Source: an uncultured Candidatus Saccharibacteria bacterium (GTDB taxonomy: Bacteria; Patescibacteriota; Minisyncoccia; Phycocordibacterales; VMEP01). From it: 64,000 nucleotides of DNA. The stretch spans positions 5,622-69,621 of the forward strand of contig CAZOFV010000001.1 in the NCBI GenBank assembly GCA_964579635.1, written 5' to 3'. Below, piece by piece: positions 3,504 through 57,288 of this stretch. Each line of letters opens with the position of its first letter. Position 1 is the first letter of the stretch. The notes beneath the pieces are model-generated. The model saw only the letters and a program-made list of their open reading frames with translations, was not told the origin of the DNA and made no database searches. The position numbers and the translations under genes are program-made.

Positions 3504-5870
3504 TCAAATCGCCCCCATTTCTCCCCAGTTTTTACCAACCGAAACATTAACCAAAATAGGAACTTCGTGAGGATTTTTCACCTTATCTTTCAACACCCCT
3601 TCCATAGCCTCATCTATAACTTTTGCGACTTCTTTTTCACTCCCCTCTTTTACTTCGTAAATTAATTCGTCGTGAACCTGAAGAAGAAGTTCTGCCTTAT
3701 CAGAAAGTTTTTTATTTTTAATTTCATCATCTGCGCGTTTAATAGCAATCTTAATTATATCTGCTGCTGTCCCTTGAATTGGAGCGTTCACCGCCATTCT
3801 TTCTGCTGCCGCACGAATATATTGAATTGGAGATTTAATTGCTGGGAAATATCGACGACGACCAAAAAGTGTCGAAGTATATCCAAGCTTCGCAACTTCC
3901 ATTTTTATACTATCAAGATATTCCGCGACCCCTGGAAACTTTTTAAAATATTGATTGTAAAATTCTTCCGCTTCAGCACGAGTTCCGCCTAAATTATCTT
4001 TAAGCGCGTTTATTCCCATTCCATAAATAATTCCAAAGTTTATAACCTTAGCCTGTCTTCTCATTTCTTTTGTCACATCTTCTTCTTTAACACCAAAAAC
4101 TCGAGAAGCAACAGTAGCGTGAACATCATCACCATCTTTAAAAATTTTTATTAAATCTTTATCTCCTGAAAGAATCGCTGCCACCCTAAGTTCTATCTGA
4201 GAATAATCAAGTGCAACTAATACGCACCCCTTATCTGCGACAAAAGCTCTTCTTATTTTCCGTCCAGCCTCAGTCTTAATAGGAATATTTTGTAAATTTG
4301 GATTAATTGAAGAAAATCTCCCTGTGGTAGTCCCCGCCTGAAGGAAGTGCGTGTGCAATCTCCCGTCGCTTGCAACAAGTGGCGGAATAGCATCGATATA
4401 CGTCGACAAAAGTTTTTGCCATTCACGATGCGCCATTATCTCTTCAATGATAGGATGAGTGCCACGAAGTTTTTCTAGTTCTGAAACTCTAGTTGAGCGT
4501 GCCCCGCCTTCAGTTTTTTTAAGACCTTTAACAGAAAGGTTAAGCGTATCAAACAAAATCTCCCCCAACTGTTTTGGAGAATTAATATTAAATTCTTTTC
4601 CAGCGTGTTCCCGTATTTTTTTCTCAAGAATTTCAAGCTCTTTGTGATATTCAAGAGAAAGTTCTTTTAAATAGCCCTTATCAATAACAACCCCTTTCTC
4701 TTCTGCTTTTTTTATAATTGGAATAAGTGGAAGCTCTATTTCTTTATAAATCTCCATGAGCCCATTAGCATCTAATCTTTCTAATATCTTTTTCTTTGCT
4801 TCTCCTATTGTTGATGAACCAGAAATTGAAAGTATTTCCTCGCGATCTGGGTTTGTATATTCAGAATTATCAACCCATAAAGCAATTGCCGCTTCCTCAA
4901 TGTCCTCTTTATCTGCGGAAGTATCTTCCACCACTGTCTTCTCTGCTTTCTCTGAAACAAACAAACCCTTAACTCGCTCGTTTAATGTCCTAAAATCAAG
5001 TTCAATAAATAATTTTTCAATTAAACTTAGATCAACGCTATCTCTCCATTCTTTTTCTGGTAAAGAAAATTCAATCGGAGCATCTCTTCTGATTTCAGCA
5101 AGTGTTTTCGAAAAAAAGGCTTCCTCTTCGTGTTCCTTTAAAAGCCCTATCATTCTTTCTTTTATTCCAGCCTTCTCAAAAGCTTCTTTATCTTTCTTTA
5201 AAGTTTTATAAATATTCTCAATAGTCCCAAAGGTCTGTATTAGGGTTGTGGCTGTCTTCTCACCAATCCCCGGAACGCCGATGATGTTATCTGACGGATC
5301 ACCACGTAAACCTTTGTAATCCGGCATGAACTTAGGGGCAAAACCAAACCTAGCAATAACCGCATCCTCATCGTAGATAATAGTGTCATTAATTCCCTTC
5401 TTTAAGGTAAACACTTGAACCTTTTTATCATCAACCAACTGCATGGTATCCATATCGCCAGAAGCAATAATAATATGTGTATTTTTATCTTTTTTTAATT
5501 TCTCTACGATAGTCCCGAGCAAATCGTCCGCTTCAAAACCAGCAAGCTCGTAAGAAGGAATACCAAACGCAGTGAAAACATCTCTTGCTCGAATAAGTTG
5601 GGCAACTAAATTACTTTCTGTTTTTGCTCTGCCCGCCTTGTAGGCTTCGTAGGCTTCATGTCTAAAAGTTGGTTCTGGTAAATCAAAGCAAGCCGCAATA
5701 TAGTCTGGCTTTAAATCTTTAATAATTTTTACAAGCATCGCAACAAGGCCGTAAAGAGCTCCCGTTGGTTCACCTTTAGTGGAAGAAAATTCTGGAAGAG
5801 CGTGGTAGGCGCGGTGAATAATAGCATGGGCATCCAAAAGAATTATTGTTTTTTTATTTTCGCTTTTCAT
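3504..5870 (-). CDS. polA: DNA polymerase I (5'-3' exonuclease plus polymerase domains)
   Basis: N-terminal 5' nuclease region, then RRQAKVINFGIIYGMG and VHDELIYEV polymerase motifs. 788 aa. Confidence 0.95.
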   Translation of the reverse strand: MKSENKKTIILLDAHAIIHRAYHALPEFSSTKGEPTGALYGLVAMLVKIIKDLKPDYIAACFDLPEPTFRHEAYEAYKAGRAKTESNLVAQLIRARDVFTAFGIPSYELAGFEADDLLGTIVEKLKKDKNTHIIIASGDMDTMQLVDDKKVQVFTLKKGINDTIIYDEDAVIARFGFAPKFMPDYKGLRGDPSDNIIGVPGIGEKTATTLIQTFGTIENIYKTLKKDKEAFEKAGIKERMIGLLKEHEEEAFFSKTLAEIRRDAPIEFSLPEKEWRDSVDLSLIEKLFIELDFRTLNERVKGLFVSEKAEKTVVEDTSADKEDIEEAAIALWVDNSEYTNPDREEILSISGSSTIGEAKKKILERLDANGLMEIYKEIELPLIPIIKKAEEKGVVIDKGYLKELSLEYHKELEILEKKIREHAGKEFNINSPKQLGEILFDTLNLSVKGLKKTEGGARSTRVSELEKLRGTHPIIEEIMAHREWQKLLSTYIDAIPPLVASDGRLHTHFLQAGTTTGRFSSINPNLQNIPIKTEAGRKIRRAFVADKGCVLVALDYSQIELRVAAILSGDKDLIKIFKDGDDVHATVASRVFGVKEEDVTKEMRRQAKVINFGIIYGMGINALKDNLGGTRAEAEEFYNQYFKKFPGVAEYLDSIKMEVAKLGYTSTLFGRRRYFPAIKSPIQYIRAAAERMAVNAPIQGTAADIIKIAIKRADDEIKNKKLSDKAELLLQVHDELIYEVKEGSEKEVAKVIDEAMEGVLKDKVKNPHEVPILVNVSVGKNWGEMGAI

Positions 5871-10202: not shown

Positions 10203-10523
10203 GATAGTCCTCCTCTGTAAAAAAACGATTAAAAAGAATAGTTAAACCTGTTTATATTATTAGCATATCTTAAACAAAAAGTCAAGCTATCCGTAATATC
10301 CCCATACCTTGGAATCACTTACTAATTGTGTGTGTTTTGTATTAACAAGCCAAAAATACCATTAAAAAACATTGCGCAGTGCGACGGCACGAGAATAGTA
10401 AATTTTCAGCAGAAAATTATACGTGTTTTTTTGTGGTATTTTAAAAAAAGATATGCGTGTTTTCAGAAACAAAAGCTAAAATACCCCTTTGGAATAAGCT
10501 GAAAATAAAGTATTATTTGATGA

Positions 10524-12224
10524 ATGCAAGAATTTGATGACAAAAAACAAGATGACCGTTTATCTTTTTTAAGAAAAAGAGAAGAGGAAGATCTTATAAA
10601 AATATTATCTGACAAATACGGAATACCTTATATAGACCTCTCTACTGTTTCAATTGAAGGTGATGCTCTTAAAATAATTTCTGAAGAAAAAGCTCGAGCT
10701 GCTGAAATTGCTCCATTCCAACTAATAAACAAAAGGGCTTTTATTGCTGTTCGCTCCCCTGACCGCAATGACACCAAAATAGCCTTGGCGGAAATATCTT
10801 CAAAGGGGTACACTCCAAATTTATTTATCACCTCTACCGCAAGCTTAGAGAGAGTTTGGGCTCGTTATAAAGAAGTTTCTTTTGCTTCTGAATCAAAATC
10901 GGGACTTCTTGATGTTTCCGCTGAATTTCTAAATGAAGCGTTTGAAAAAATAAAAACAATTCCCGACATAACCAATATGGTTAATGATGTCTTAGGCAAA
11001 ACTGGAGGACATAAAATATCAGTAATGTTAGAAATTCTTTTGGCTGGGTCAGTTGCTGTTGGTGCTTCTGATATTCACATAGAACCAGAAGACGGGAGTG
11101 TTCATATTAGAGCGCGTCTTGATGGTGTTCTTGAAAACCTCCTCACTATAAATTACGAAACTTATAAACTTCTTTCTTCTAGAATAAAACTACTCTCTGG
11201 CTTAAAACTTAACGTTATCGCATCCGCCCAAGATGGACGCTTTAGTATTAAACTAAACGAAAAAGAAATAGAGATTCGTTCCTCTGTTATCCCTGGTGCA
11301 TATGGCGAATCTTTTGTTATGCGTGTTTTAAATCCAGAAAGTATCGCTGTTCCATTTGAAGATCTTGGTGTAAACAAACGACTTTTTGAAATTATAGAAA
11401 AAGAATTAAAACGTCCTAATGGAATTATTTTAACCACCGGACCAACTGGTTCTGGTAAAACAACAACCCTATATGCCTTTTTAAGAAAAATTTACTCCCC
11501 TGGAAGTAAGGTGATTACAATCGAAGACCCAATTGAATATCACTTAGAAGGAATCACTCAAACACAAACAAACGAAGAAAAAGGCTACACCTTTTTGGAG
11601 GGACTAAGATCCGCATTACGCCAAGACCCGGATGTAATAATGGTTGGTGAAATCCGCGACACAGAAACAGCAAAAATTTCTATAAACTCAGCTTTAACTG
11701 GACACTTAGTTTTTTCAACCCTACACACCAATACGGCGGCTGGTACAATCCCCCGTTTAATAGACCTTGGAGTTGATGCAAAAATAATAAGCTCAGCTCT
11801 TAACATCTCCCTTGCTCAACGTCTTGCAAGAAAACTTTGTAACTATTGCAAAAAAGAAGCTCCTGCTAACGACGAGGAAAAAAGGATTTTAAATACAGTT
11901 ATTGAACGTATTAAGTCTGAAGGAAAAGAATACGCCCTAACTTCAATAGAATCTTTACTTCCTATTTCAAACCTCTTCCAAGCAGTTGGTTGTGAAAAAT
12001 GTAACAACACTGGTTTTAAGGGGCGTGTTGGTATTTACGAAGCAATATTAACTGATGAAAATATAGAAAAAATTATTAACGAAAATCCAACTGAGCGAGA
12101 AATAAAAAAAGCGAGCTTGCCACAAAAAATTCTTGATTTACAACAAGACGCAACAATCAAAATCATTCAGGGAATAACATCTTTAGACGAAGTTGGTCGT
12201 GTTGTAGACATAGAAGAGGTTTAA
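10524..12224 (+). CDS. pilB: Type IV pilus / type II secretion assembly ATPase (PilB/GspE family)
   Basis: GspE N-terminal domain, then Walker A GPTGSGKTTT, Asp box, His box, and the C-terminal Cys4 cluster CNYC...CEKC. Confidence 0.85.
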   Translation: MQEFDDKKQDDRLSFLRKREEEDLIKILSDKYGIPYIDLSTVSIEGDALKIISEEKARAAEIAPFQLINKRAFIAVRSPDRNDTKIALAEISSKGYTPNLFITSTASLERVWARYKEVSFASESKSGLLDVSAEFLNEAFEKIKTIPDITNMVNDVLGKTGGHKISVMLEILLAGSVAVGASDIHIEPEDGSVHIRARLDGVLENLLTINYETYKLLSSRIKLLSGLKLNVIASAQDGRFSIKLNEKEIEIRSSVIPGAYGESFVMRVLNPESIAVPFEDLGVNKRLFEIIEKELKRPNGIILTTGPTGSGKTTTLYAFLRKIYSPGSKVITIEDPIEYHLEGITQTQTNEEKGYTFLEGLRSALRQDPDVIMVGEIRDTETAKISINSALTGHLVFSTLHTNTAAGTIPRLIDLGVDAKIISSALNISLAQRLARKLCNYCKKEAPANDEEKRILNTVIERIKSEGKEYALTSIESLLPISNLFQAVGCEKCNNTGFKGRVGIYEAILTDENIEKIINENPTEREIKKASLPQKILDLQQDATIKIIQGITSLDEVGRVVDIEEV

Positions 12225-48039: not shown

Positions 48040-48150
48040 ATTTGTATATTCGTGTAATTATATCATAAAAAAAATAAAGGTATCAGATTTTTCTTTCAAA
48101 AATAGATAACGTGCTTGGGTGACTGTCGTGGTAAAATATTTTACGACATC

Positions 48151-49074
48151 ATGACTCAAGATTTAAAGAGTTTAAAACAGCAATTTCTTGAATATATTGA
48201 AATTGAACGTGGAAGAAGTTTAAAAACTGTTCGTAATTACGATGCTTATCTTGAGCGTTTCCTTACTCAAACAAACGCTAAATATCCAAAAGATATAACC
48301 GATGACTCAATAAGAGAATTTCGTCTTTGGTTGAATAGACAAGAGGGTCGCCGTGAGCGCGGGATGAGTGCAGGAACGTTAAAAAAGAAAACCCAGAACT
48401 ATTATTTAATTGCTTTACGTATTTTTCTTAAATATTTAATGAAAAGAGGGATTGAAGCTCTTTCCCCTGATCGTATTGAGCTTGCAAAGGTAGCAGAGAG
48501 GTCGCTTGATCTTATTTCTTTAGATGAACTAGAGCGCTTACTTAAAGCTCCCGATGGCGGTGATTTAAAAAGCTTGCGAGATAAGGCTATTTTAGAATTA
48601 CTTTTCTCAACAGGGCTTCGTGTTTCGGAGTTATGTTCTCTTCCCCGCGATATCGACCTTCGTAAAGATGAATTTTCGGTACGAGGAAAAGGAGAAAAAG
48701 TACGAGTTGTTTTTCTTTCCGATTCGGCAAAAGAAGCAATTAAAAAATATTTAGCAAAGCGAGGAGATATGGAGGATGTTCTTTTTATTGGAACAGGAAG
48801 CGTTGGAAAAAAGAAAGGAGAAATAACACACCTAACGACCCGTTCGGTTGAAAGAATCGTTGCACAATATGCAATTAAGGCCGGTATCTCAAAAAAAGTA
48901 ACCCCACACGTTATCAGACACTCATTTGCCACAGACCTACTTGGTAATGGGGCAGATATTCGTTCTGTTCAAATGATGCTTGGGCATGCCAGTATTTCAA
49001 CCACACAGATTTACACCCACGTGACAGACAAGGCCCTCAGAGAAATACATAAGAAGTTCCACTCTAAAAAATAG
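48151..49074 (+). CDS. Tyrosine site-specific recombinase of the XerC/XerD family
   Basis: C-terminal catalytic region HVIRHSFATDLL...LGHASISTTQIYTHV. Start placed at the internal MTQDLKSL. Confidence 0.85.
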   Translation: MTQDLKSLKQQFLEYIEIERGRSLKTVRNYDAYLERFLTQTNAKYPKDITDDSIREFRLWLNRQEGRRERGMSAGTLKKKTQNYYLIALRIFLKYLMKRGIEALSPDRIELAKVAERSLDLISLDELERLLKAPDGGDLKSLRDKAILELLFSTGLRVSELCSLPRDIDLRKDEFSVRGKGEKVRVVFLSDSAKEAIKKYLAKRGDMEDVLFIGTGSVGKKKGEITHLTTRSVERIVAQYAIKAGISKKVTPHVIRHSFATDLLGNGADIRSVQMMLGHASISTTQIYTHVTDKALREIHKKFHSKK

Positions 49075-51806: not shown

Positions 51807-51880
51807 GCCCCCGTAGTGAAATGGATATCACGACAGTCTTCGAAACTGTTATTCCAGGTTCGAATCCTGGCGAGGGCACA
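51807..51880 (+). tRNA. tRNA-Arg (anticodon UCG), no encoded CCA
   Basis: Hand fold: acceptor GCCCCCG/CGAGGGC with one mismatch; anticodon stem ACAGT/ACTGT, loop CTTCGAA; T-arm CCAGG TTCGAAT CCTGG. Confidence 0.7.
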
Positions 51881-51883
51881 TGA

Positions 51884-52035
51884 AGTGTGCTTTCGCAGCA
51901 AGCCAACTGCTTGGCTTGCGTCAGGATTCGAAAGCCGGAGCATGTCGCTCTGCGACAGCGAGGCGGGGTCGCAGGTTCTTTGTGTATGAGAATGTTTTCA
52001 TTCGAAGACACTTAGAAACCTGTGACCGATTCTAT
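51884..52035. repeat. tRNA-associated hairpin repeat, copy A
   Basis: Hairpins GCAAGCCAA ctg CTTGGCTTGC and GTCGC tct GCGAC, the core GAGGCGGGGTCGCAGGTTC, and a terminal GTGACCGATTC motif. Confidence 0.5.
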
Positions 52036-52108
52036 AGATTAACAATAAATATAAAAACATTTTTATTTGAACTTATCCTAATCTCTGTTAAAATACTTCG
52101 ATAAAAAT

Positions 52109-52179: not shown

Positions 52180-52189
52180 CAGCGAACAA

Positions 52190-52390
52190 AGTGAGCAAGC
52201 GTGTAGAGCAAGCCAACTGCTTGGCTTGCGTCAGGATTCGAAAGCCGGAGCATGTCGCTCTGCGACAGCGAGGCGGGGTCGCGACCTTCGTTGCGGAGAT
52301 TTATCGTAGCAGAAGAGTTGTGACCGATTATCTTTGATTTCGGAGTTATTAACGAGTAATCCGTGACCGATTCTCTCTTTCAGGATCTTC
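52190..52390. repeat. tRNA-associated hairpin repeat, copy B, with two trailing GTGACCGATT motifs
   Basis: Near-identical to copy A over about 75 nt. Confidence 0.5.
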
Positions 52391-53124: not shown

Positions 53125-53160
53125 CGGGGTGTAGTATAGAGGTAGTACGTCTGCTTTGGG
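53125..53160 (+). pseudogene. 5' fragment of tRNA-Pro (36 nt, up to the anticodon), a duplicate of the intact gene 75 nt downstream
   Basis: Identical to nt 1-36 of the intact tRNA-Pro, then diverges. Confidence 0.5.
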
Positions 53161-53199
53161 GTTAAGAAGATTTTTCGTTTAGTATTTTGGTTTCATCGT

Positions 53200-53270
53200 C
53201 GGGGTGTAGTATAGAGGTAGTACGTCTGCTTTGGGAGCAGATAGCCCGAGTTCGATTCTCGGCACCCCGA
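53200..53270 (+). tRNA. tRNA-Pro (anticodon UGG), no encoded CCA
   Basis: Acceptor CGGGGTG/CACCCCG, anticodon stem-loop TCTGC TTTGGGA GCAGA, T-arm CCCGAG TTCGATT CTCGG. Confidence 0.85.
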
Positions 53271-53349
53271 CGATGAAACTAAACGATTTTTAGAAATCTT
53301 ATTAACCGGAAGTCCGGGGGACTTCCGTGGAAATTTCCCGAAGAAATTT

Positions 53350-53381
53350 AGATAGCCCGAGTTCGATTCTCGGCACCCCGA
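53350..53381 (+). repeat. 3' fragment of tRNA-Pro (32 nt identical) plus a duplicated downstream flank CAATGTAACTAA
   Basis: Exact copy of the last 32 nt of tRNA-Pro. The flank is similar to that after the intact gene. Confidence 0.5.
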
Positions 53382-53439
53382 CAATGTAACTAAATGGTGT
53401 GTTAGAAACTCTTTGTAATCAGAAGTTCATTATAAACGT

Positions 53440-53592
53440 AACGAAGCACTGTAAGGGGTGAGCAGGCAAAGGGCTTTGCCTGCGTCCGGAATCGAAAGCC
53501 GGAGCGCGACGGCGCGAGGCGGGGCTGCGCAAAAATTTAGTAAAATTTTATGCGTAGCCGATTCTCGGCACCCCGACAATGTAACTAAGTAA
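53440..53592. repeat. tRNA-associated hairpin repeat, copy C, ending in a second tRNA-Pro 3'-end fragment (53558-53576) plus flank
   Basis: Hairpin GCAGGCAAAG..CTTTGCCTGC carries compensatory changes relative to copies A and B. Also has GAATCGAAAGCCGGAGC and a GCAAAAATTTAGTAAAATTTTATGCG palindrome. Confidence 0.45.
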
Positions 53593-54760: not shown

Positions 54761-54829
54761 TGATATGTTGTTGTCAGAATAAGTTTACTAAATATTACCT
54801 TATCTGATAATATGTCGGATACGTAGTTT

Positions 54830-54900
54830 GCGGGATTAGTTAAATGGTATAACTCCAGTTTTCCAAACTGGTGTCGGGAGTTCGATTCTCCCATCCCGCA
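54830..54900 (+). tRNA. tRNA-Gly (anticodon UCC), no encoded CCA
   Basis: Acceptor GCGGGAT/ATCCCGC, anticodon loop TTTCCAA, T-arm GGGAG TTCGATT CTCCC. Confidence 0.85.
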
Positions 54901-55037
54901 CACAGTAATACTAGGTAGTACTCAGTCGGACTAAGCACGAAATAGCCAAGAATCCCCAAAGAGGCCCCAATTGTTGCCTCTGTGGCATTTTCTCGCGCCT
55001 TCACCCAGTTCCCCTCAGGTGAGAACATATTCACCAT

Positions 55038-55205
55038 ATGGCACGCGTCACCGTTACCTTCTCGATCTCCCTCCCGCCAGAAATGGCAGAAGAACTTGAG
55101 AAAATTAGAAAGAAGGAGCATCGGACCCGCTCCGAGCTTCTGCGTGAAGCGCTACGTCGATATATTTCCGCCAGATCTCAGGACGTCCCCGCACCTGGGA
55201 TTTGA
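55038..55205 (+). CDS. Ribbon-helix-helix (CopG/NikR-N/ParD-like) DNA-binding protein, 55 aa
   Basis: MARVTVTFSISLPPEMAEELEKIRKKEHRTRSELLREALRRYIS is a classic RHH pattern. It overlaps the longer but unrecognisable ORF 54982..55263, which is in another frame. Confidence 0.6.
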   Translation: MARVTVTFSISLPPEMAEELEKIRKKEHRTRSELLREALRRYISARSQDVPAPGI

Positions 55206-55268
55206 ACTTTCTAAGAAATTCGTTGTCGTTTGCAGTAGGCGGTCTGCTTATGAAAGGGGGTGAGGGAG

Positions 55269-55472
55269 ATGGGATGGTTTGGATGGTCTACTGAAAAGGA
55301 CACAGGAGACGAGGTCAACGTCAAGATGGAAAAGAGTTCGAGTGACGCCTCGCACGTCCATTACATACGTTCTACCGACGGCGACAAAGCCGATCACTCG
55401 CATGTGGTCTATACAAAGGAGTCAGACGGAAGTCGCCACGCACACGGTTATCCGAGTAAGAGCAAGCGCTAA
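55269..55472 (+). CDS. Small His-rich hypothetical protein (about 67 aa; HxH, DHSH and HAH motifs)
   Basis: Strong SD GGGGGTGAGGGAG before the ATG. Immediately downstream of the RHH gene. Confidence 0.4.
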   Translation: MGWFGWSTEKDTGDEVNVKMEKSSSDASHVHYIRSTDGDKADHSHVVYTKESDGSRHAHGYPSKSKR

Positions 55473-55477
55473 CAGTC

Positions 55478-55882
55478 CTACGCCCGCTCCTTAACTGCAG
55501 TACGGTTAAGGAGTGGGCGTATTTGTTCTTCATAACGTCGTTCCAGTCCCTTCCGGCTATCTGTAGTTCCAGATCCTTCAGCAAACAACATCGCGTCCAG
55601 GAAGAAACTGCGGATATTCTCCGCATCAGAATTCTCTCGTTCAGGGAGATCCCATTCCGAAGCGATAAGGCAGACGGTCCCAAGATTCCAATCCGGCTCC
55701 ATCGCCGGGTCGTTGGGAAGGTTCTTCAATATATATTCCACTACCCTAAGCAGTACATCCTCTCCATCACCGGAAAGTCCGATGACATGTAGCAGGTGCG
55801 GGTTGTCATGAGTATCACGCACAATGCGGCCGAATTCCGGTCGAAACGCTGATCGTACGTATTTTGCAAATTGGTGCTCCAT
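55478..55882 (-). CDS. Hypothetical protein (islet)
   Basis: 134-aa ORF in GC-rich DNA; no recognisable motif. Confidence 0.35.
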   Translation of the reverse strand: MEHQFAKYVRSAFRPEFGRIVRDTHDNPHLLHVIGLSGDGEDVLLRVVEYILKNLPNDPAMEPDWNLGTVCLIASEWDLPERENSDAENIRSFFLDAMLFAEGSGTTDSRKGLERRYEEQIRPLLNRTAVKERA

Positions 55883-56047
55883 AGAAAAATACTAACTCTT
55901 GAAACTGAGTTGTCAATTAGCCCTGATCCATAGCGAAAAGCATGGTGTAAGTCACAACCTTTTCAGATATTTGGTAGCAGCGAGAATTGTTTTTAAAAAA
56001 AGGCCACTCCCGTGCTGGGGTGGCCTTTTTTCGGGGTGTCTCCCCGA

Positions 56048-56413
56048 TTAACGAACAAGAGATCGAAGGGTGTGGAATTGCTCGTGTGTTAAGCGCAGTT
56101 CATACCTCAAGCACTGACACGAGATGATTATGCTAATTGGGGTTATGAACAATACCGCTACGACAGAGAACCAGTTACCGGGCTGAACGACGTTGTATCC
56201 GATAAGGACCCCCGATACAGCAAAATATGACAGCGTCCAAACCAACGACGCCGTTAGCCACAAAACCCCACGGAGCCAGCGATCGCGTTCCTTTTGAAGC
56301 AATACACGGAGACGTCGCCTCAACCAAGGACGCTCGTTGAGTTCTTCTTGAATCTCAGCACAGTCTGTAATTCTTGTGATTCTTGAAAGGTGTCCCATTT
56401 TTTCTTCCTCCAC
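56048..56413 (-). CDS. Hypothetical two-TM membrane protein (islet)
   Basis: SD GGAGGAAG upstream. Terminator hairpin AGGCCAC..GTGGCCTTTTTT downstream. Confidence 0.45.
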   Translation of the reverse strand: MEEEKMGHLSRITRITDCAEIQEELNERPWLRRRLRVLLQKERDRWLRGVLWLTASLVWTLSYFAVSGVLIGYNVVQPGNWFSVVAVLFITPISIIISCQCLRYELRLTHEQFHTLRSLVR

Positions 56414-56612
56414 ACATTGTCACTACCCGAGCCAATCTCAGGTGGTAACAAATATGGAAGAGGAAACTTCTCACTACAACATACATCTCCCACCATTTCC
56501 GTCAATGGTACGTTTTTCAGAGTGAATATTTCTTCACTAGGTACTTACTTTTCGATTACGCTATATTCATATAGTGTATGTGAGTTAATTCTTGAATGAA
56601 TAATAACAACCA

Positions 56613-56888
56613 ATGCGAATCGACGATACAGATTATGAAGAAATACTGGCGCTTCTTGATCACAAGAGCGTTCCGTTTGATCCCACTGAAGCCCGACAGG
56701 CAGTCGAGAATTTTGTCGATCTCGTTGAACTCTTGATGCGACCACTTCCACTGCCACCGGCCGGGGAAACTTCGTTCAAGCAGCCTTCTTCAGATCATCC
56801 GGGACCATCTTCTCCGTCGCTTCCACCGACTGAATTAATTCAAGAAGTTGAGGGTCGCGACTCAGGTATCGAGTTCGAACATCGTTGA
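56613..56888 (+). CDS. Hypothetical Pro-rich protein (islet)
   Basis: ORF only. Confidence 0.3.
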   Translation: MRIDDTDYEEILALLDHKSVPFDPTEARQAVENFVDLVELLMRPLPLPPAGETSFKQPSSDHPGPSSPSLPPTELIQEVEGRDSGIEFEHR

Positions 56889-56914
56889 TGAGCCCGCACA
56901 AATTTGAGCAAAGC

Positions 56915-57230
56915 GAAAAGTTGGGCGGGATGAGCAAGCAAACTGCTTTGCTTGCGTGGAGAATCGAAAGCCGGAGCATGTCGCTTTGCGACAGCGAGGC
57001 GGGGTCCGCGAGTACTTATGAGCGAAGCGAATTAGTAACTCGTGACCGATTCCCATCCCGCACAAAGCGTTAAGAAAACATGCTAGGAACAGCATGTTTT
57101 CAGCTTTGTGGGGCGGAGGCTGACGAGCCGAGCCGGGGTCGCGCAAAAATTTAGCAAAATTTTATGCGTGACCAGATTTGAACTATAGCGAAACGAATTA
57201 GTAACTTGTGACCGATTCTCTAATCTTTTT
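56915..57230. repeat. tRNA-associated hairpin repeats, copies D and E (tandem, partially duplicated), each ending in ..AATTAGTAACT(C/T)GTGACCGATTC
   Basis: Copy D hairpin GCAAGCAAA ctg CTTTGCTTGC has compensatory changes against copies A and B. Copy E shares GAGCCGGGGTCGCGCAAAAATTTAGCAAAATTTTATGCG with copies C and F. Confidence 0.5.
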
Positions 57231-57288
57231 CACAAAAAAACAAAAGACCGCACAAATGCGGTCTTTTATTTTTAGAGATGAGTGAATA

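Follow-up and report, generated by a model that had tools for sequence, protein, structure and literature searches.

A Probable Accretion Zone Behind tRNA-Gly(UCC) in a Candidate-Phylum Genome: An Integrase-Less Gene Cassette and Non-Coding Modules at tRNA Ends

Introduction

Among the closest described systems are the ssrA islands of Dehalococcoides, tandem accretions behind a tRNA-like gene whose 3' end is copied at their borders (McMurdie et al. 2011, PMC3146451). These islands encode a serine recombinase of ~540 aa, and some of them have no integration module and are presumed to depend on their neighbours for mobilisation; the target of the islands is ssrA, their 20-bp repeat starts within the T-loop, and the whole integrase gene lies beside attL (PMC3146451). 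The cassette described here differs in target, repeat and integrase placement: it targets a tRNA-Gly gene, its core comprises 8 bp of the acceptor end, and in its family the attachment site is straddled by the integrase gene, with no integrase present at attL. It is therefore not a Dehalococcoides-type island. In SSV1-type archaeal integrases, attP also lies inside the integrase gene and integration splits that gene. The large serine recombinase (LSR) relatives of our cassette share this placement of the attachment site within coding sequence; however, the SSV1-type enzymes are tyrosine recombinases of archaeal viruses that are split in the gene body, whereas here a serine recombinase is separated from its last 42 codons only. 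The tycheposons of Prochlorococcus reportedly comprise small integrative elements and integrase-less satellites that carry variable cargo at the tRNA genes of streamlined genomes, but their recombinases and hosts differ from those considered here.

A second set of comparisons concerns the small structured modules that accompany the cassette. The attP hairpin of the CTX phage and the attC sites of integrons are recombined by XerCD at dif or by IntI at attI, respectively, and the folded CTX attP mimics dif. The modules likewise hold two inverted copies of their target ~90 nt apart, and a single strand of them can form a duplex that matches the target, but a conserved three-way junction lies between the arms and no such enzyme or site is involved. 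tRNA-like RNAs include tmRNA and the tRNA-like structures of viruses, and the primer-binding site of LTR retroelements is complementary to a tRNA 3' end. Modules resemble the former in having an acceptor-like stem to which a genuine tRNA 3' end contributes, and the latter in having an 18-19-nt perfect complement of that end. They match no tmRNA or tRNA model, however, with a three-way junction replacing the T-loop, and they have no linked reverse transcriptase.

Here we analyze the DNA between tRNA-Gly(UCC) and the terminator of the HU gene in a stretch of 64 kb (hereafter the window). The GC-rich sequence that follows the tRNA is a 2.0-kb gene cassette joined end to end with two copies of a small structured element. 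We consider it probable that the region is an accretion zone in which two unrelated kinds of tRNA-end elements, an LSR-family cassette and non-coding modules, have come together.

Results

The locus and its borders

The integration target, tRNA-Gly(UCC), occupies positions 54830-54901 of the plus strand (ARAGORN; Rfam tRNA, 70.9 bits). In 300-nt windows, GC content increased from 0.30-0.36 upstream of this gene to 0.48-0.52 at 54800-55850 and dropped to ~0.43 past 57050, which confirms the abrupt rise at the tRNA 3' end reported in an earlier note on this DNA. The cassette itself has a GC content of ~0.50, compared with ~0.37 in the host. The earlier note had interpreted the segment as an islet inserted at the tRNA, bounded by an 18/20 direct repeat of the tRNA 3' end, and our analysis supports both a horizontally acquired island at that end and the repeat. 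The tRNA end CGATTCTCCCATCCCGCACA (54883-54902) was seen again at 57047-57064 as CGATTC--CCATCCCGCACA, with 18 matching letters, a 2-nt gap and identity in all of the final 12 letters (12/12), and no equivalent was recovered from the shuffled window. The repeat is nevertheless not the attR that it had been taken for. It belongs to a separate module of ~150 nt (56901-57064), in which it forms the 3' strand of the helix that closes the structure. Neither does the island end at 57062, since homology to related cassettes and to the relative L123 stops at 56900-56902.

Both ends of the cassette (54903-56900) were defined by comparison with related elements. The conserved left-end leader (AGTAAYACTNAGT...TTGTTGCC...GGCAC..., 54903-55037, plus strand) could be aligned to 8 further cassettes at their left ends, and each of these begins behind either a tRNA-Gly gene or the terminus of another cassette. 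The right terminus (GTTCGAACATCGTTGATGAGCCCGCAC(A), 56873-56900, plus strand) was invariant in an alignment of 6 sequences and the same in 22 metagenome contigs; it is identical over at least 27 nt to integrase-bearing relatives and does not change across unrelated contexts. A common core, CCCGCACA, is found on the plus strand at both junctions, at 54895-54902 in the tRNA end (attL) and at 56893-56900 in the cassette's own right end (attR). This core occurs 4 times in the window against 0.58 expected; 8 bp are weak evidence on their own. Related cassettes lie at a distance of 0.8-2.0 kb downstream of tRNA-Gly(CCC), (GCC) or (UCC) in 8 loci, and tandem cassette arrays with an LSR occur in related loci.

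Genes of the cassette

The four open reading frames other than the ribbon-helix-helix (RHH) gene are present as previously described, and so is the RHH gene, a CopG-type gene at 55038-55205 of the plus strand (Pfam RHH_1, E 8e-13). It is the conserved first gene of class-1 cassettes, and most related cassettes begin with it; 12 loci have a homologue, 70-93% identical, about 125 nt in from the left end, and its dN/dS against L123 was 0.21. A small His-rich frame (55270-55472, plus strand) is variable and doubtful as a gene, its counterpart in L123 being unrelated except for the last ~10 codons. The third frame (134 aa, 55478-55882, minus strand; dN/dS 0.42), whose 3' end is overlapped by a terminator-like hairpin at 55479-55521, had only 2 homologues among 5.8 billion proteins and no sequence match in the PDB. 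Its AlphaFold2 model was poor (pLDDT 59), and the Foldseek search with it returned meaningless hits and no fold match. A PemK toxin gene occupies the same relative place in L130, and this candidate identity was rejected because the two proteins have no similarity. The 116-aa protein encoded at 56048-56398 of the minus strand, with two transmembrane segments and a GGAGGAAG Shine-Dalgarno sequence, was 96% identical in L123 and L149 and showed a dN/dS of 0.19; the search for further homologues was empty. Finally, the 91-aa frame (56613-56888, plus strand) combines an N-terminal portion of ~59 aa, which represents the conserved last gene of the cassettes, with a 3' part that is antisense to the integrase remnant described below. 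Its 71 homologues (51-137 aa, without a Pfam domain) always adjoin the terminus. Apart from the RHH protein, no cargo protein, the His-rich one included, matched a family in Pfam, PADLOC, PHROGs or NCBIfam. The cargo DNA had no match in phage and plasmid collections, and the patterns of modules and terminus gave 0 matches in IMG/VR.

An integrase remnant at the right border

The earlier note had stated that the island has no integrase. This holds for an intact gene, but the 3' end of an LSR gene was retained on the minus strand at 56779-56904. The remnant (residues 489-530 plus stop, 56776-56904) is cut at the crossover site, 56900, and encodes the final 42 residues (126 nt) of a 530-aa protein with 79% identity (E 5e-22). 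The full protein contains the Pfam domains Resolvase, Recombinase and Zn_ribbon_recom and is also annotated in L130. The integrase-bearing relatives that the earlier note had proposed to look for thus exist. Intact recombinases in metagenome contigs read across the same conserved terminus (...GTTCGAACATCGTTGAYGAGCCCGCAC), and the full LSRs of L130, L135, L138 and L140 all cross it, with the stop codon 97 nt left of the terminus. In the autonomous relatives, the LSR gene reads across the attachment site, which places its last 42 codons beyond the crossover. About 30 other loci keep only residues ~491-530, with the same break point. No other part of the recombinase was detected in the 64-kb window (tblastn), neither a circular nor an excised form of the cassette was observed, and none of the loci shows an LSR directly adjoining a tRNA-Gly, the state expected right after autonomous integration.

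These observations classify the cassette. It is not an autonomous LSR element, as its recombinase gene is not intact. It does have what a non-autonomous derivative should have: two ends homologous to those of integrase-bearing relatives (terminus, leader and RHH gene), a shared core at both junctions and a tRNA-Gly target. It is not an integron gene cassette either, as the recombinase of the arrays is a serine enzyme, the ends are a coding remnant and there is no attC.

Comparison with related strains

Nucleotide identity between the window and L123 changes from ~75% to ~95% exactly at tRNA-Gly(UCC). Values of dS were 0.05-0.25 for the cargo and 0.37-0.79 for the genes of the CCA enzyme, YraN, the protease and RNase Y. 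The earlier note had expected a relative carrying the same segment in conserved synteny to speak against insertion. L123 is formally such a relative, but its cargo is far less diverged than the flanks, which argues for recent transfer and not against mobility. The HU gene beside the locus has a low dS as well (0.095), and an import by homologous recombination across the region could thus account for some of the similarity of the cargo. The same cargo was found at the same site in L123, L124 and L149. In L123 it is followed by a different module; cargo and module are consequently separable. L118 and L122 contain other DNA at this locus and provide no clean empty site, and the synteny of L118 with the window ends at 57236. 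Exact look-ups of HU, protease and RNase Y revealed no empty tRNA-Gly(UCC) site; they returned the same strain, or strains with contigs broken at the modules.

Structured modules behind tRNA genes

A covariance model (R1) of the ~150-nt module found five strong or clear and two weak or decayed matches in the window, one behind every tRNA. The GC-rich block and the tRNA-end repeat are also seen behind the other tRNAs of the window, an observation overlooked in the earlier note. All copies are on the plus strand. Modules A (51880-52036; 56.9 bits) and B (52182-52376; 51.3 bits) follow tRNA-Arg(UCG) and tRNA-Gly(GCC), respectively, and their 76-nt cores are 100% identical. Module C (53395-53589; 92.1 bits) follows tRNA-Pro(UGG); it is absent from L123, which misses window positions 53293-53558 and thereby shows an empty site for this module. 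Module D (56901-57064; 54.7 bits, E 2e-15) is the one that abuts the cassette. Following a spacer, it is composed of an acceptor 5' strand (GCGGGAT, 56925-56931), a hairpin (56934-56955), an antisense segment (GGAGAATCG, 56958-56966), a three-way-junction core and the copy of tRNA nt 56-74 (57047-57064) that was the originally reported repeat. Its predicted RNA fold of -64 kcal/mol (z -5.1) contains an 8-bp acceptor-like stem. Module E, older and decayed (57065-57235; 61.6 bits at 57097-57182), has a compensating hairpin 1 in the alignment, and the truncated 3' end of a further module lies within its stretch (57187-57235). Another decayed copy (1718-1845; 21.7 bits, E 1e-4) lies behind the tRNA at 1642-1717.

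The general architecture of the module is a three-way junction closed by a helix, in which an internal antisense segment pairs with the copy of tRNA nt 56-74; the antisense segment lies upstream of the copy and is the Watson-Crick complement of the same stretch. The model recovered 135 copies in 98 sources. Modules occur behind tRNA genes in more than 100 species of candidate phyla and Elusimicrobia, behind about half of the tRNAs in the sampled loci and behind tRNAs of at least 19 amino-acid classes, always on the tRNA strand and 20-110 nt downstream. Matches in L008, L078 and L079 were chance matches of the pattern in coding DNA. In an alignment fitted to the model, compensatory (double) changes were observed in 26 of 28 pairs and 93.5% of cells were paired, and the covariation score in this fitted alignment was 0.51, compared with 0.14 after shuffling (0/500 reached the observed value) and less than 0.1 with the partners slid. 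An independent RNAalifold run on 21 sequences recovered 16 of the 28 pairs. G.T combinations were more numerous than A.C combinations in the pairs (236 vs 45). In showing compensatory change beyond that of the controls, the module qualifies as a conserved structured RNA or folded single strand.

The modules are also related in sequence to their neighbouring tRNAs. The last 12 nt of the tRNA recur without mismatch (12/12) in 51 of 98 loci and in none of 941 controls, the repeat begins at C56 in 47 of 60 cases with a right end that varies in length, and the antisense dinucleotide complementary to T-loop nt 59-60 is present in 93 of 98. In its acceptor 5' strand the module complements the 3' strand and does not reproduce the 5' strand of the tRNA itself (15 informative positions vs 2). 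In type-2 modules the antisense is a single contiguous stretch of 16-17 nt. Tandem identical units were found in L050, L094 and L115.

The module is apparently an undescribed structured element. No Rfam 15 family matches any of the modules, at the gathering score or at E values up to 10, and nothing was found in the literature searched. ARAGORN detected no tmRNA or tRNA-like gene in the modules; the motif GGATTCGAAAG, which we took to resemble the 5' region of tmRNA, was dropped as a lead. A group I intron in tRNA was also rejected, as those introns differ in site and size, being much larger and inserted at position 35/36 of the anticodon loop (PMC13011429). No module-linked recombinase gene was present among 117 genome loci. 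The modules are not elements of the IS110 type with a bridge RNA, as there is no ORF in or beside them and the repeat is 18-20 nt long; IS110-type elements have a DEDD recombinase gene adjoining the RNA and duplicate a core of only 2 nt. MITEs are marked by constant terminal inverted repeats and a short target duplication. Modules have inverted arms of 10-19 nt, with a sequence that changes with the neighbouring tRNA, and a duplication of 18-20 nt.

Discussion

Origin of the cassette

Comparative sequence evidence leads us to regard the cassette at 54903-56900 as an integrase-less, non-autonomous member of an LSR-driven integrative family, presumably mobilised in trans. The earlier suggestion that the integrase had been lost or acted in trans was the right idea for an island with no working integrase whose relatives carry an LSR. 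In the proposed scheme, the site ...GAGCCCGCAC|A... of a circular element would recombine with the tRNA-Gly 3' end (...CCCGCAC|A), inserting the circle. Insertion would leave the RHH end beside the tRNA, and the small-ORF end together with the integrase tail would become the right border. The modules at 56901-57235 would have been in place behind tRNA-Gly(UCC) before the cassette arrived. Without an integrase body of its own, the cassette could move only if an LSR were supplied in trans; no LSR body lies in the 64-kb window. The lower divergence of the cargo than of its flanks gives indirect support to such mobilisation.

An improbable alternative is that the cargo is an old resident spread by natural transformation and homologous recombination, with the tRNA and HU as arms and the integrase tail as a fossil. 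The shared cargo and site in L123, L124 and L149, the low dS of the HU gene beside it and the lack of an LSR in the window are all consistent with such a history, and the window encodes a PilB-type ATPase (10524-12224) and RuvB. However, the modules between cargo and HU are wholly different in the window and in L123, which makes the import of a single tract from tRNA to HU unlikely. In addition, the ends of the cassette recur on related cassettes of unrelated genomes, both at tRNA-Gly(CCC) and (GCC) and in LSR-containing tandem arrays, so site-specific insertion is required at some point. That a single 2.2-kb island (54901-57062) integrated as a unit, with the tRNA-end copy as attR and a lost integrase, is highly improbable: the repeat is real and far beyond chance and GC remains high until ~57200, but the repeat belongs to a module that the window has at 4 other tRNAs and that occurs with no cargo in more than 100 species. 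Homology is lost at 56900-56902 in every related cassette as well as in L123, where a different module follows the same cargo, and the integrase remnant is cut at 56900.

Possible mechanisms of the modules

We infer the modules to be mobile units, whose conserved fold may be that of an RNA transcribed along with the tRNA or that of a single DNA strand. The first of these readings, which we regard as a serious possibility while leaning against it, proposes that the module is an RNA gene, read along with the tRNA or immediately behind it. Its acceptor-like stem and extended T stem would form a tRNA-like minihelix, a substrate for RNase P, for 3' trimming and for the CCA enzyme. Spread would be left to host recombination: with a copy of a universally conserved host sequence on either side, a module could be inserted at any such tRNA. 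The constant strand and distance downstream of the tRNA, the strong covariation with tolerance of G.U and the fold of module D with its 8-bp acceptor-like stem fit such a gene. Some loci have the acceptor 5' strand (7/7 in 8%, vs 0.2% of controls), an encoded CCA is commoner on the downstream than on the upstream copy (11 vs 3), and repeats that extend 6-36 nt into the flank fit an import from the same locus of another strain. However, terminator-like hairpins occupy the spacer between tRNA and module in many loci, and simple co-transcription fits them badly. The proposal also leaves unexplained how the antisense and sense parts are matched anew when a new type of tRNA is colonised.

Alternatively, and in our view somewhat unlikely, the module could be a folded single-stranded DNA whose arms rebuild the duplex of the T-loop-to-3'-end segment of the tRNA, serving as an att site for a recombinase acting in trans. 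An inverted arm, an intervening region of ~90 nt and a direct arm joined to host flank are what remains of hairpin att integration in the CTX phage, and by analogy the layout of the modules agrees with such a remnant. The duplex copies its target exactly, with Watson-Crick pairs in place of the G.U pairs of the tRNA. Hairpins of the GCGAAGC type, which are very stable in DNA, are frequent in the modules, tandem identical units exist, and the window encodes a single XerC/D-type recombinase. Against this stand the lack of a recombinase linked to modules in the 117 genome loci, an intervening core far more conserved than a mere loop needs, and a target that is not a dif site; nor are the modules known in a circular single-stranded form.

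It is unlikely that the antisense is an RNA or DNA guide by which an unlinked enzyme is steered to nt 54-74 of the tRNA, with duplication of the guide-bound target as the source of the 18-20-nt repeat. The repeat (C56 to ~C74) does coincide with the region complementary to the antisense, the type-2 antisense is contiguous, and a sequence-reading protein would hardly be capable of targeting at least 19 tRNA classes; however, the guide already has a pairing partner in cis, namely the downstream repeat, the repeat is full even in many modules without the acceptor part of the antisense, its right end is variable in length, and there is no candidate protein.

Bolder and doubtful proposals can be made separately for the two kinds of elements. 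The serine-recombinase cassettes would be integron-like, each carrying a C-terminal exon of the integrase that restores the gene when placed beside an integrase body, and the modules would be a new class of protein-less mobile element homing to the T-loop-to-3'-end segment of any tRNA. Targeting would be achieved by the built-in antisense, acting as a guide RNA or as a folded single-stranded att site that copies the target, and the three-way junction would be a handle for a host or trans-acting enzyme.

Significance

The modules break short-read assemblies and mimic attL/attR signatures. Consequently, searches for islands by tRNA-end repeats misplace borders in these phyla, as happened here. 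They constitute a widespread, strongly covarying non-coding element that is missing from Rfam and in which the 3' end of the neighbouring tRNA has a perfect antisense, and they represent a new RNA gene linked to tRNAs or else a new means by which DNA insertion is targeted. Should the latter be true, they could embody a programmable targeting principle. As regards the cassettes, the 27-nt terminus provides a simple tag with which to find them in metagenomes, and the overlap of an integrase gene with its own attachment site would act as a built-in switch, because the protein changes on integration. Overall, the island points to a route by which tiny, streamlined genomes of candidate phyla still acquire foreign genes, namely a serine-integrase system specific for tRNA-Gly, with cassettes that pass between phyla and do not need an integrase of their own.

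The tRNA-Gly(UCC) Locus Is Composite

ARAGORN and Rfam place tRNA-Gly(UCC) at 54830-54901. In 300-nt windows, GC content is 0.30-0.36 immediately before the tRNA and abruptly higher (0.48-0.52) from it onward, dropping back past ~57050. The tRNA end (CGATTCTCCCATCCCGCACA, 54883-54902) is present again at 57047-57064 with a 2-nt gap, a repeat to which shuffled sequence gave no comparable match. The RHH gene of the cargo was confirmed (Pfam RHH_1, E 8e-13), and the remaining cargo ORFs named in an earlier note were all found. The locus had therefore been described accurately. However, the tRNA-end repeat, which the note took as the cargo's own attachment site, is not particular to the cargo. A repeat finder revealed that a 76-nt GC-rich block (56933-57008), close to the islet's right border, has further copies behind tRNA-Arg (51897-51972), tRNA-Gly(GCC) (52207-52282, 100% identical to the tRNA-Arg copy) and tRNA-Pro (53461-53536), each followed by ...GTGACCGATTC and then by a remnant of the adjacent tRNA's 3' end. 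We call this non-coding element the module.

L123, a contig of 82 kb that shares the gene order of the window, resolves the locus further. Here modules A (behind tRNA-Arg(UCG)), B (behind tRNA-Gly(GCC)), D (56901-57064) and E (57065-57235) are replaced by other modules, including a second type, and the same cargo occupies the same place, its homology ending at window position 56902. The cargo (54903-56900) and module D are therefore separate pieces. The check for an empty site in relatives succeeded for module C, behind tRNA-Pro(UGG), which is cleanly missing from L123 together with an adjoining 66-nt insert, but not for the cargo; tRNA-Gly(UCC) of L123 is followed by it as well.

Two strains 97-98% identical to the window were also compared over the interval from the HU terminator to the following tRNA, which is hypervariable. 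In L118 (98.5% identical) synteny extends from ClpP as far as the HU terminator; divergence starts at 57236, past which a GrpB gene and partial module-like sequence stand instead. L122 diverges at the same point. In the L118 interval (3776-4449) the GrpB gene is preceded by ACGGGTA-CCGGGG-ATCGAAAG-ATGGAGCACGACGG, the left half of a module fused to the upstream region of the gene, and the L122 interval (360-524) carries a different ORF that ends in CGGGATGGA.

A Family of Serine-Recombinase Cassettes

The rightmost ORF of the cargo (91 aa) has 71 homologues. In a soil contig (L130) three copies are spaced 1.1-1.3 kb apart; after one of them comes a counterpart of the window's RHH gene (70% identity), and after another a large serine recombinase of 630 aa. 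In the nucleotide alignment the 3' end of the ORF carries an invariant block (...GGGTCGCGA..GGTTCGAACATCGTTGAYGAGCCCGCAC), past which similarity wholly stops, and a metagenome scan with this terminus yielded 22 additional contigs. In L130, L135, L138 and L140 an opposite-strand ORF of 530-630 aa, with Resolvase, Recombinase and Zn_ribbon_recom domains, crosses the terminus and has its stop 97 nt beyond; in L136 and L137 the same ORF is cut by contig ends. The minus strand of the window encodes the last 42 residues of this recombinase at 56779-56904 (79% identity, E 5e-22), and ~30 further loci keep the tail alone, the break falling always at the CCCGCAC site (residue ~489-491). The earlier statement that the element has no integrase consequently stands for the integrase body, which was sought in the window and not found (the sole recombinase there is a XerC/D-type protein, 48115-49074), but not for its tail.

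Cassettes lie 0.8-2.0 kb to the 3' side of tRNA-Gly(CCC) in L131, L139, L147, L148 and L156, two in tandem lie 3' of tRNA-Gly(GCC) in L152, and those of the window and L123 lie 3' of tRNA-Gly(UCC). Both after a tRNA and after the terminus of another cassette, most open with a common leader and the same RHH gene. A second class starts with a GTGCCAA..GGCAC hairpin and carries a PemK toxin in L130 and L131; a poly-gamma-glutamate hydrolase is cargo in L142/L143. Tandem arrays with units of 1.1 to ~6 kb occur in L130 (8800-13400) and L140 (1-12500), each unit ending in an integrase-tail terminus, with one full serine recombinase distally. Their layout resembles that of an integron, although the recombinase here is a serine recombinase. 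In the way it works, the cassette is like the serine-recombinase islands found at Dehalococcoides ssrA; its target, core length and integrase-gene position set it apart. To our knowledge, integrase genes that contain the attachment site are otherwise known only among SSV1-type tyrosine integrases.

Age of the Cargo and a Possible Route of Insertion

Compared with L123, host genes have dS values of 0.37-0.79 (dN/dS 0.03-0.14) and cargo genes 0.05-0.25, and identity per 100 nt steps from ~75% to ~95% exactly at the tRNA; both point to a recent arrival of the cargo. Because the right-hand modules differ between the window and L123, the simplest history has two steps, with lineage-specific modules coming first and the cassette arriving later at the tRNA end in both. 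Homologous import may contribute to the low cargo divergence, and the likewise low dS of HU is consistent with it. Purifying selection acts on the TM protein (dN/dS 0.19), the 134-aa ORF is under weaker constraint (0.42), and the His-rich ORF, replaced in L123, is doubtful as a gene.

End homology, integrase-tail homology, target preference and lower divergence are established for the cassette. We infer that the site of the circular cassette is its terminus joined to its leader, and that the serine integrase would pair this site with the tRNA-Gly 3' end and exchange strands within CCCGCAC|A. Since the integrase gene lies across this site, integration at a bare tRNA would cost an autonomous element the final 42 codons of that gene; a cassette that inserted between tRNA and element would give them back, which would account for the integrase bodies that come after a cassette terminus in arrays.

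Distribution of the Module

A covariance model built from the RNAalifold structure of 21 short members recovered strong modules at 51919-52036, 52229-52334, 53483-53568, 56955-57056 and 57097-57182, and a decayed module after the tRNA at 1642-1717; there is therefore a module behind each tRNA of the window. An AT-rich, decayed intergenic remnant with no adjoining tRNA (10360-10433; 28 bits, E 1e-6) may be the trace of a lost tRNA gene or a relocated remnant. ARAGORN calls the tRNA at 1642-1717 a suppressor (anticodon TTA at position 35). Renumbered by the standard scheme (D stem 10-13/22-25, anticodon stem 27-31/39-43), it has the loop CTTTTAA and anticodon TTT of tRNA-Lys, and its acceptor stem is like those of the tRNA-Lys genes of L022 and L056; the call is probably a register error and no recoding signal.

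A pattern derived from the block matches at least 117 species genomes. Among the matches listed, three chance ones aside, all are Patescibacteria (Saccharibacteria, many Paceibacterota/Parcubacteria lineages and Berkelbacteria) or Elusimicrobia; viral contigs scanned with the pattern gave 0 matches. In ~90 of the 125 matches listed, a same-strand tRNA of nearly any identity ends 23-114 nt upstream, a range to which the 2,062 nt between tRNA-Gly(UCC) and its block is an outlier.

Head-to-tail arrays of 2-3 identical modules per tRNA (period 131-163 nt) occur in L050 (2587-3010), L094 (890-1140), L115 and L108, and could result from repeated insertion, unequal crossing-over or rolling-circle copying. 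Same-strain short-read (Logan) contigs L119-L121, L125 and L126 stop in or beside modules (window 57134-57145, 56867), so module repeats break assemblies. The tRNA-Pro locus (53125-53394) has two extra insertions without modules. One, made up of tRNA nt 1-36 in copy plus 39 nt, immediately precedes the gene (53125-53199) and is present in L123; the other is the 66-nt insert absent from L123, bounded by 45-nt repeats (53239-53283 and 53350-53394) that run from the anticodon stem to 11 nt beyond tRNA-Pro. Leader and trailer of this tRNA share 9 further complementary nt (inverted repeat I4).

Fold and Anatomy of the Module

RNAalifold predicted a three-way junction for the 21 short members, with compensatory change in 16 of 28 pairs. 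The model extended this to 135 copies across 98 sources. In this alignment, which is fitted to the model, 93.5% of cells are paired, double changes occur in 26 of the 28 pairs, and the covariation score is 0.51, against 0.14 for shuffles and <0.1 with partners slid. A single G.U pair is retained in 122 of 128 sequences and G.T exceeds A.C in module pairs (236 vs 45); it is therefore the tRNA-sense strand that folds, as RNA or single-stranded DNA. Module D by itself is predicted to fold at -64 kcal/mol (z -5.1), with the 57047-57064 repeat wholly paired with upstream antisense. An Rfam search gave no match even at E 10, and no description was found in the literature; outside every family tested, the module could be something new.

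The full arrangement runs from an intact tRNA through a spacer, often a single long hairpin; a 7-9-nt complement of the acceptor 3' strand, discriminator and C74 (in a subset only); a hairpin (in one subtype only); a 10-nt antisense of T-loop nt 56-60 and the T-stem 3' strand; AAAGCCGGAGC and GCGAGGCGGGGTCGC, each followed by a variable hairpin; GTGAC; and a direct copy of tRNA nt 56 to ~74. In the type-2 modules of L123 (13255-13367 and 8820-8932, minus strand), an unbroken antisense of the tRNA 3' end, 16-17 nt long, runs right up to TCGAAAG/TAGAAAG. Their core also differs (ACGGAGGCGGG.ACCATGAGTCTGCGAATGGTCGCCGAG...TTGACCC), and the type-1 model still scores them at 32-40 bits.

The repeat starts precisely at C56 in 47 of 60 loci and ends mostly within 2 nt of the tRNA end; the final 12 tRNA nt are repeated 12/12 in 51 of 98 loci, compared with 0 of 941 mismatched controls, and T-loop nt 59-60 have their complement in the dinucleotide preceding TCGAAAG (93 of 98 cases). 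At G.U pairs and mismatches of the acceptor, the module is the Watson-Crick complement of the 3' strand at 15 informative positions versus 2, so the antisense is fitted to the 3' strand and does not duplicate the tRNA 5' strand. Some tRNA-end copies differ just past the discriminator, with N73-CCA downstream and N73-CAA in the upstream functional tRNA in 11 loci, and the reverse in 3; module insertion may strip a tRNA gene of its encoded CCA.

Of three readings of the module, the first in rank, itself less likely than not, is a tRNA-like RNA gene that would spread by host recombination via the flanking tRNA repeats; terminator-like spacers speak against simple co-transcription. That it is a folded single-stranded attachment site copying its own target is rather doubtful, and its highly conserved core speaks against a mere loop. 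A guide serving an unlinked enzyme is improbable, and the cis pairing of the antisense speaks against a free guide. The tRNA-like reading has a consequence for tRNA-Ala, whose modules (L051, L064, L076) have A3 opposite U70 where the tRNA has the alanine identity pair G3.U70: if module RNA is tRNA-like, these A3-U70 modules should escape charging by AlaRS.
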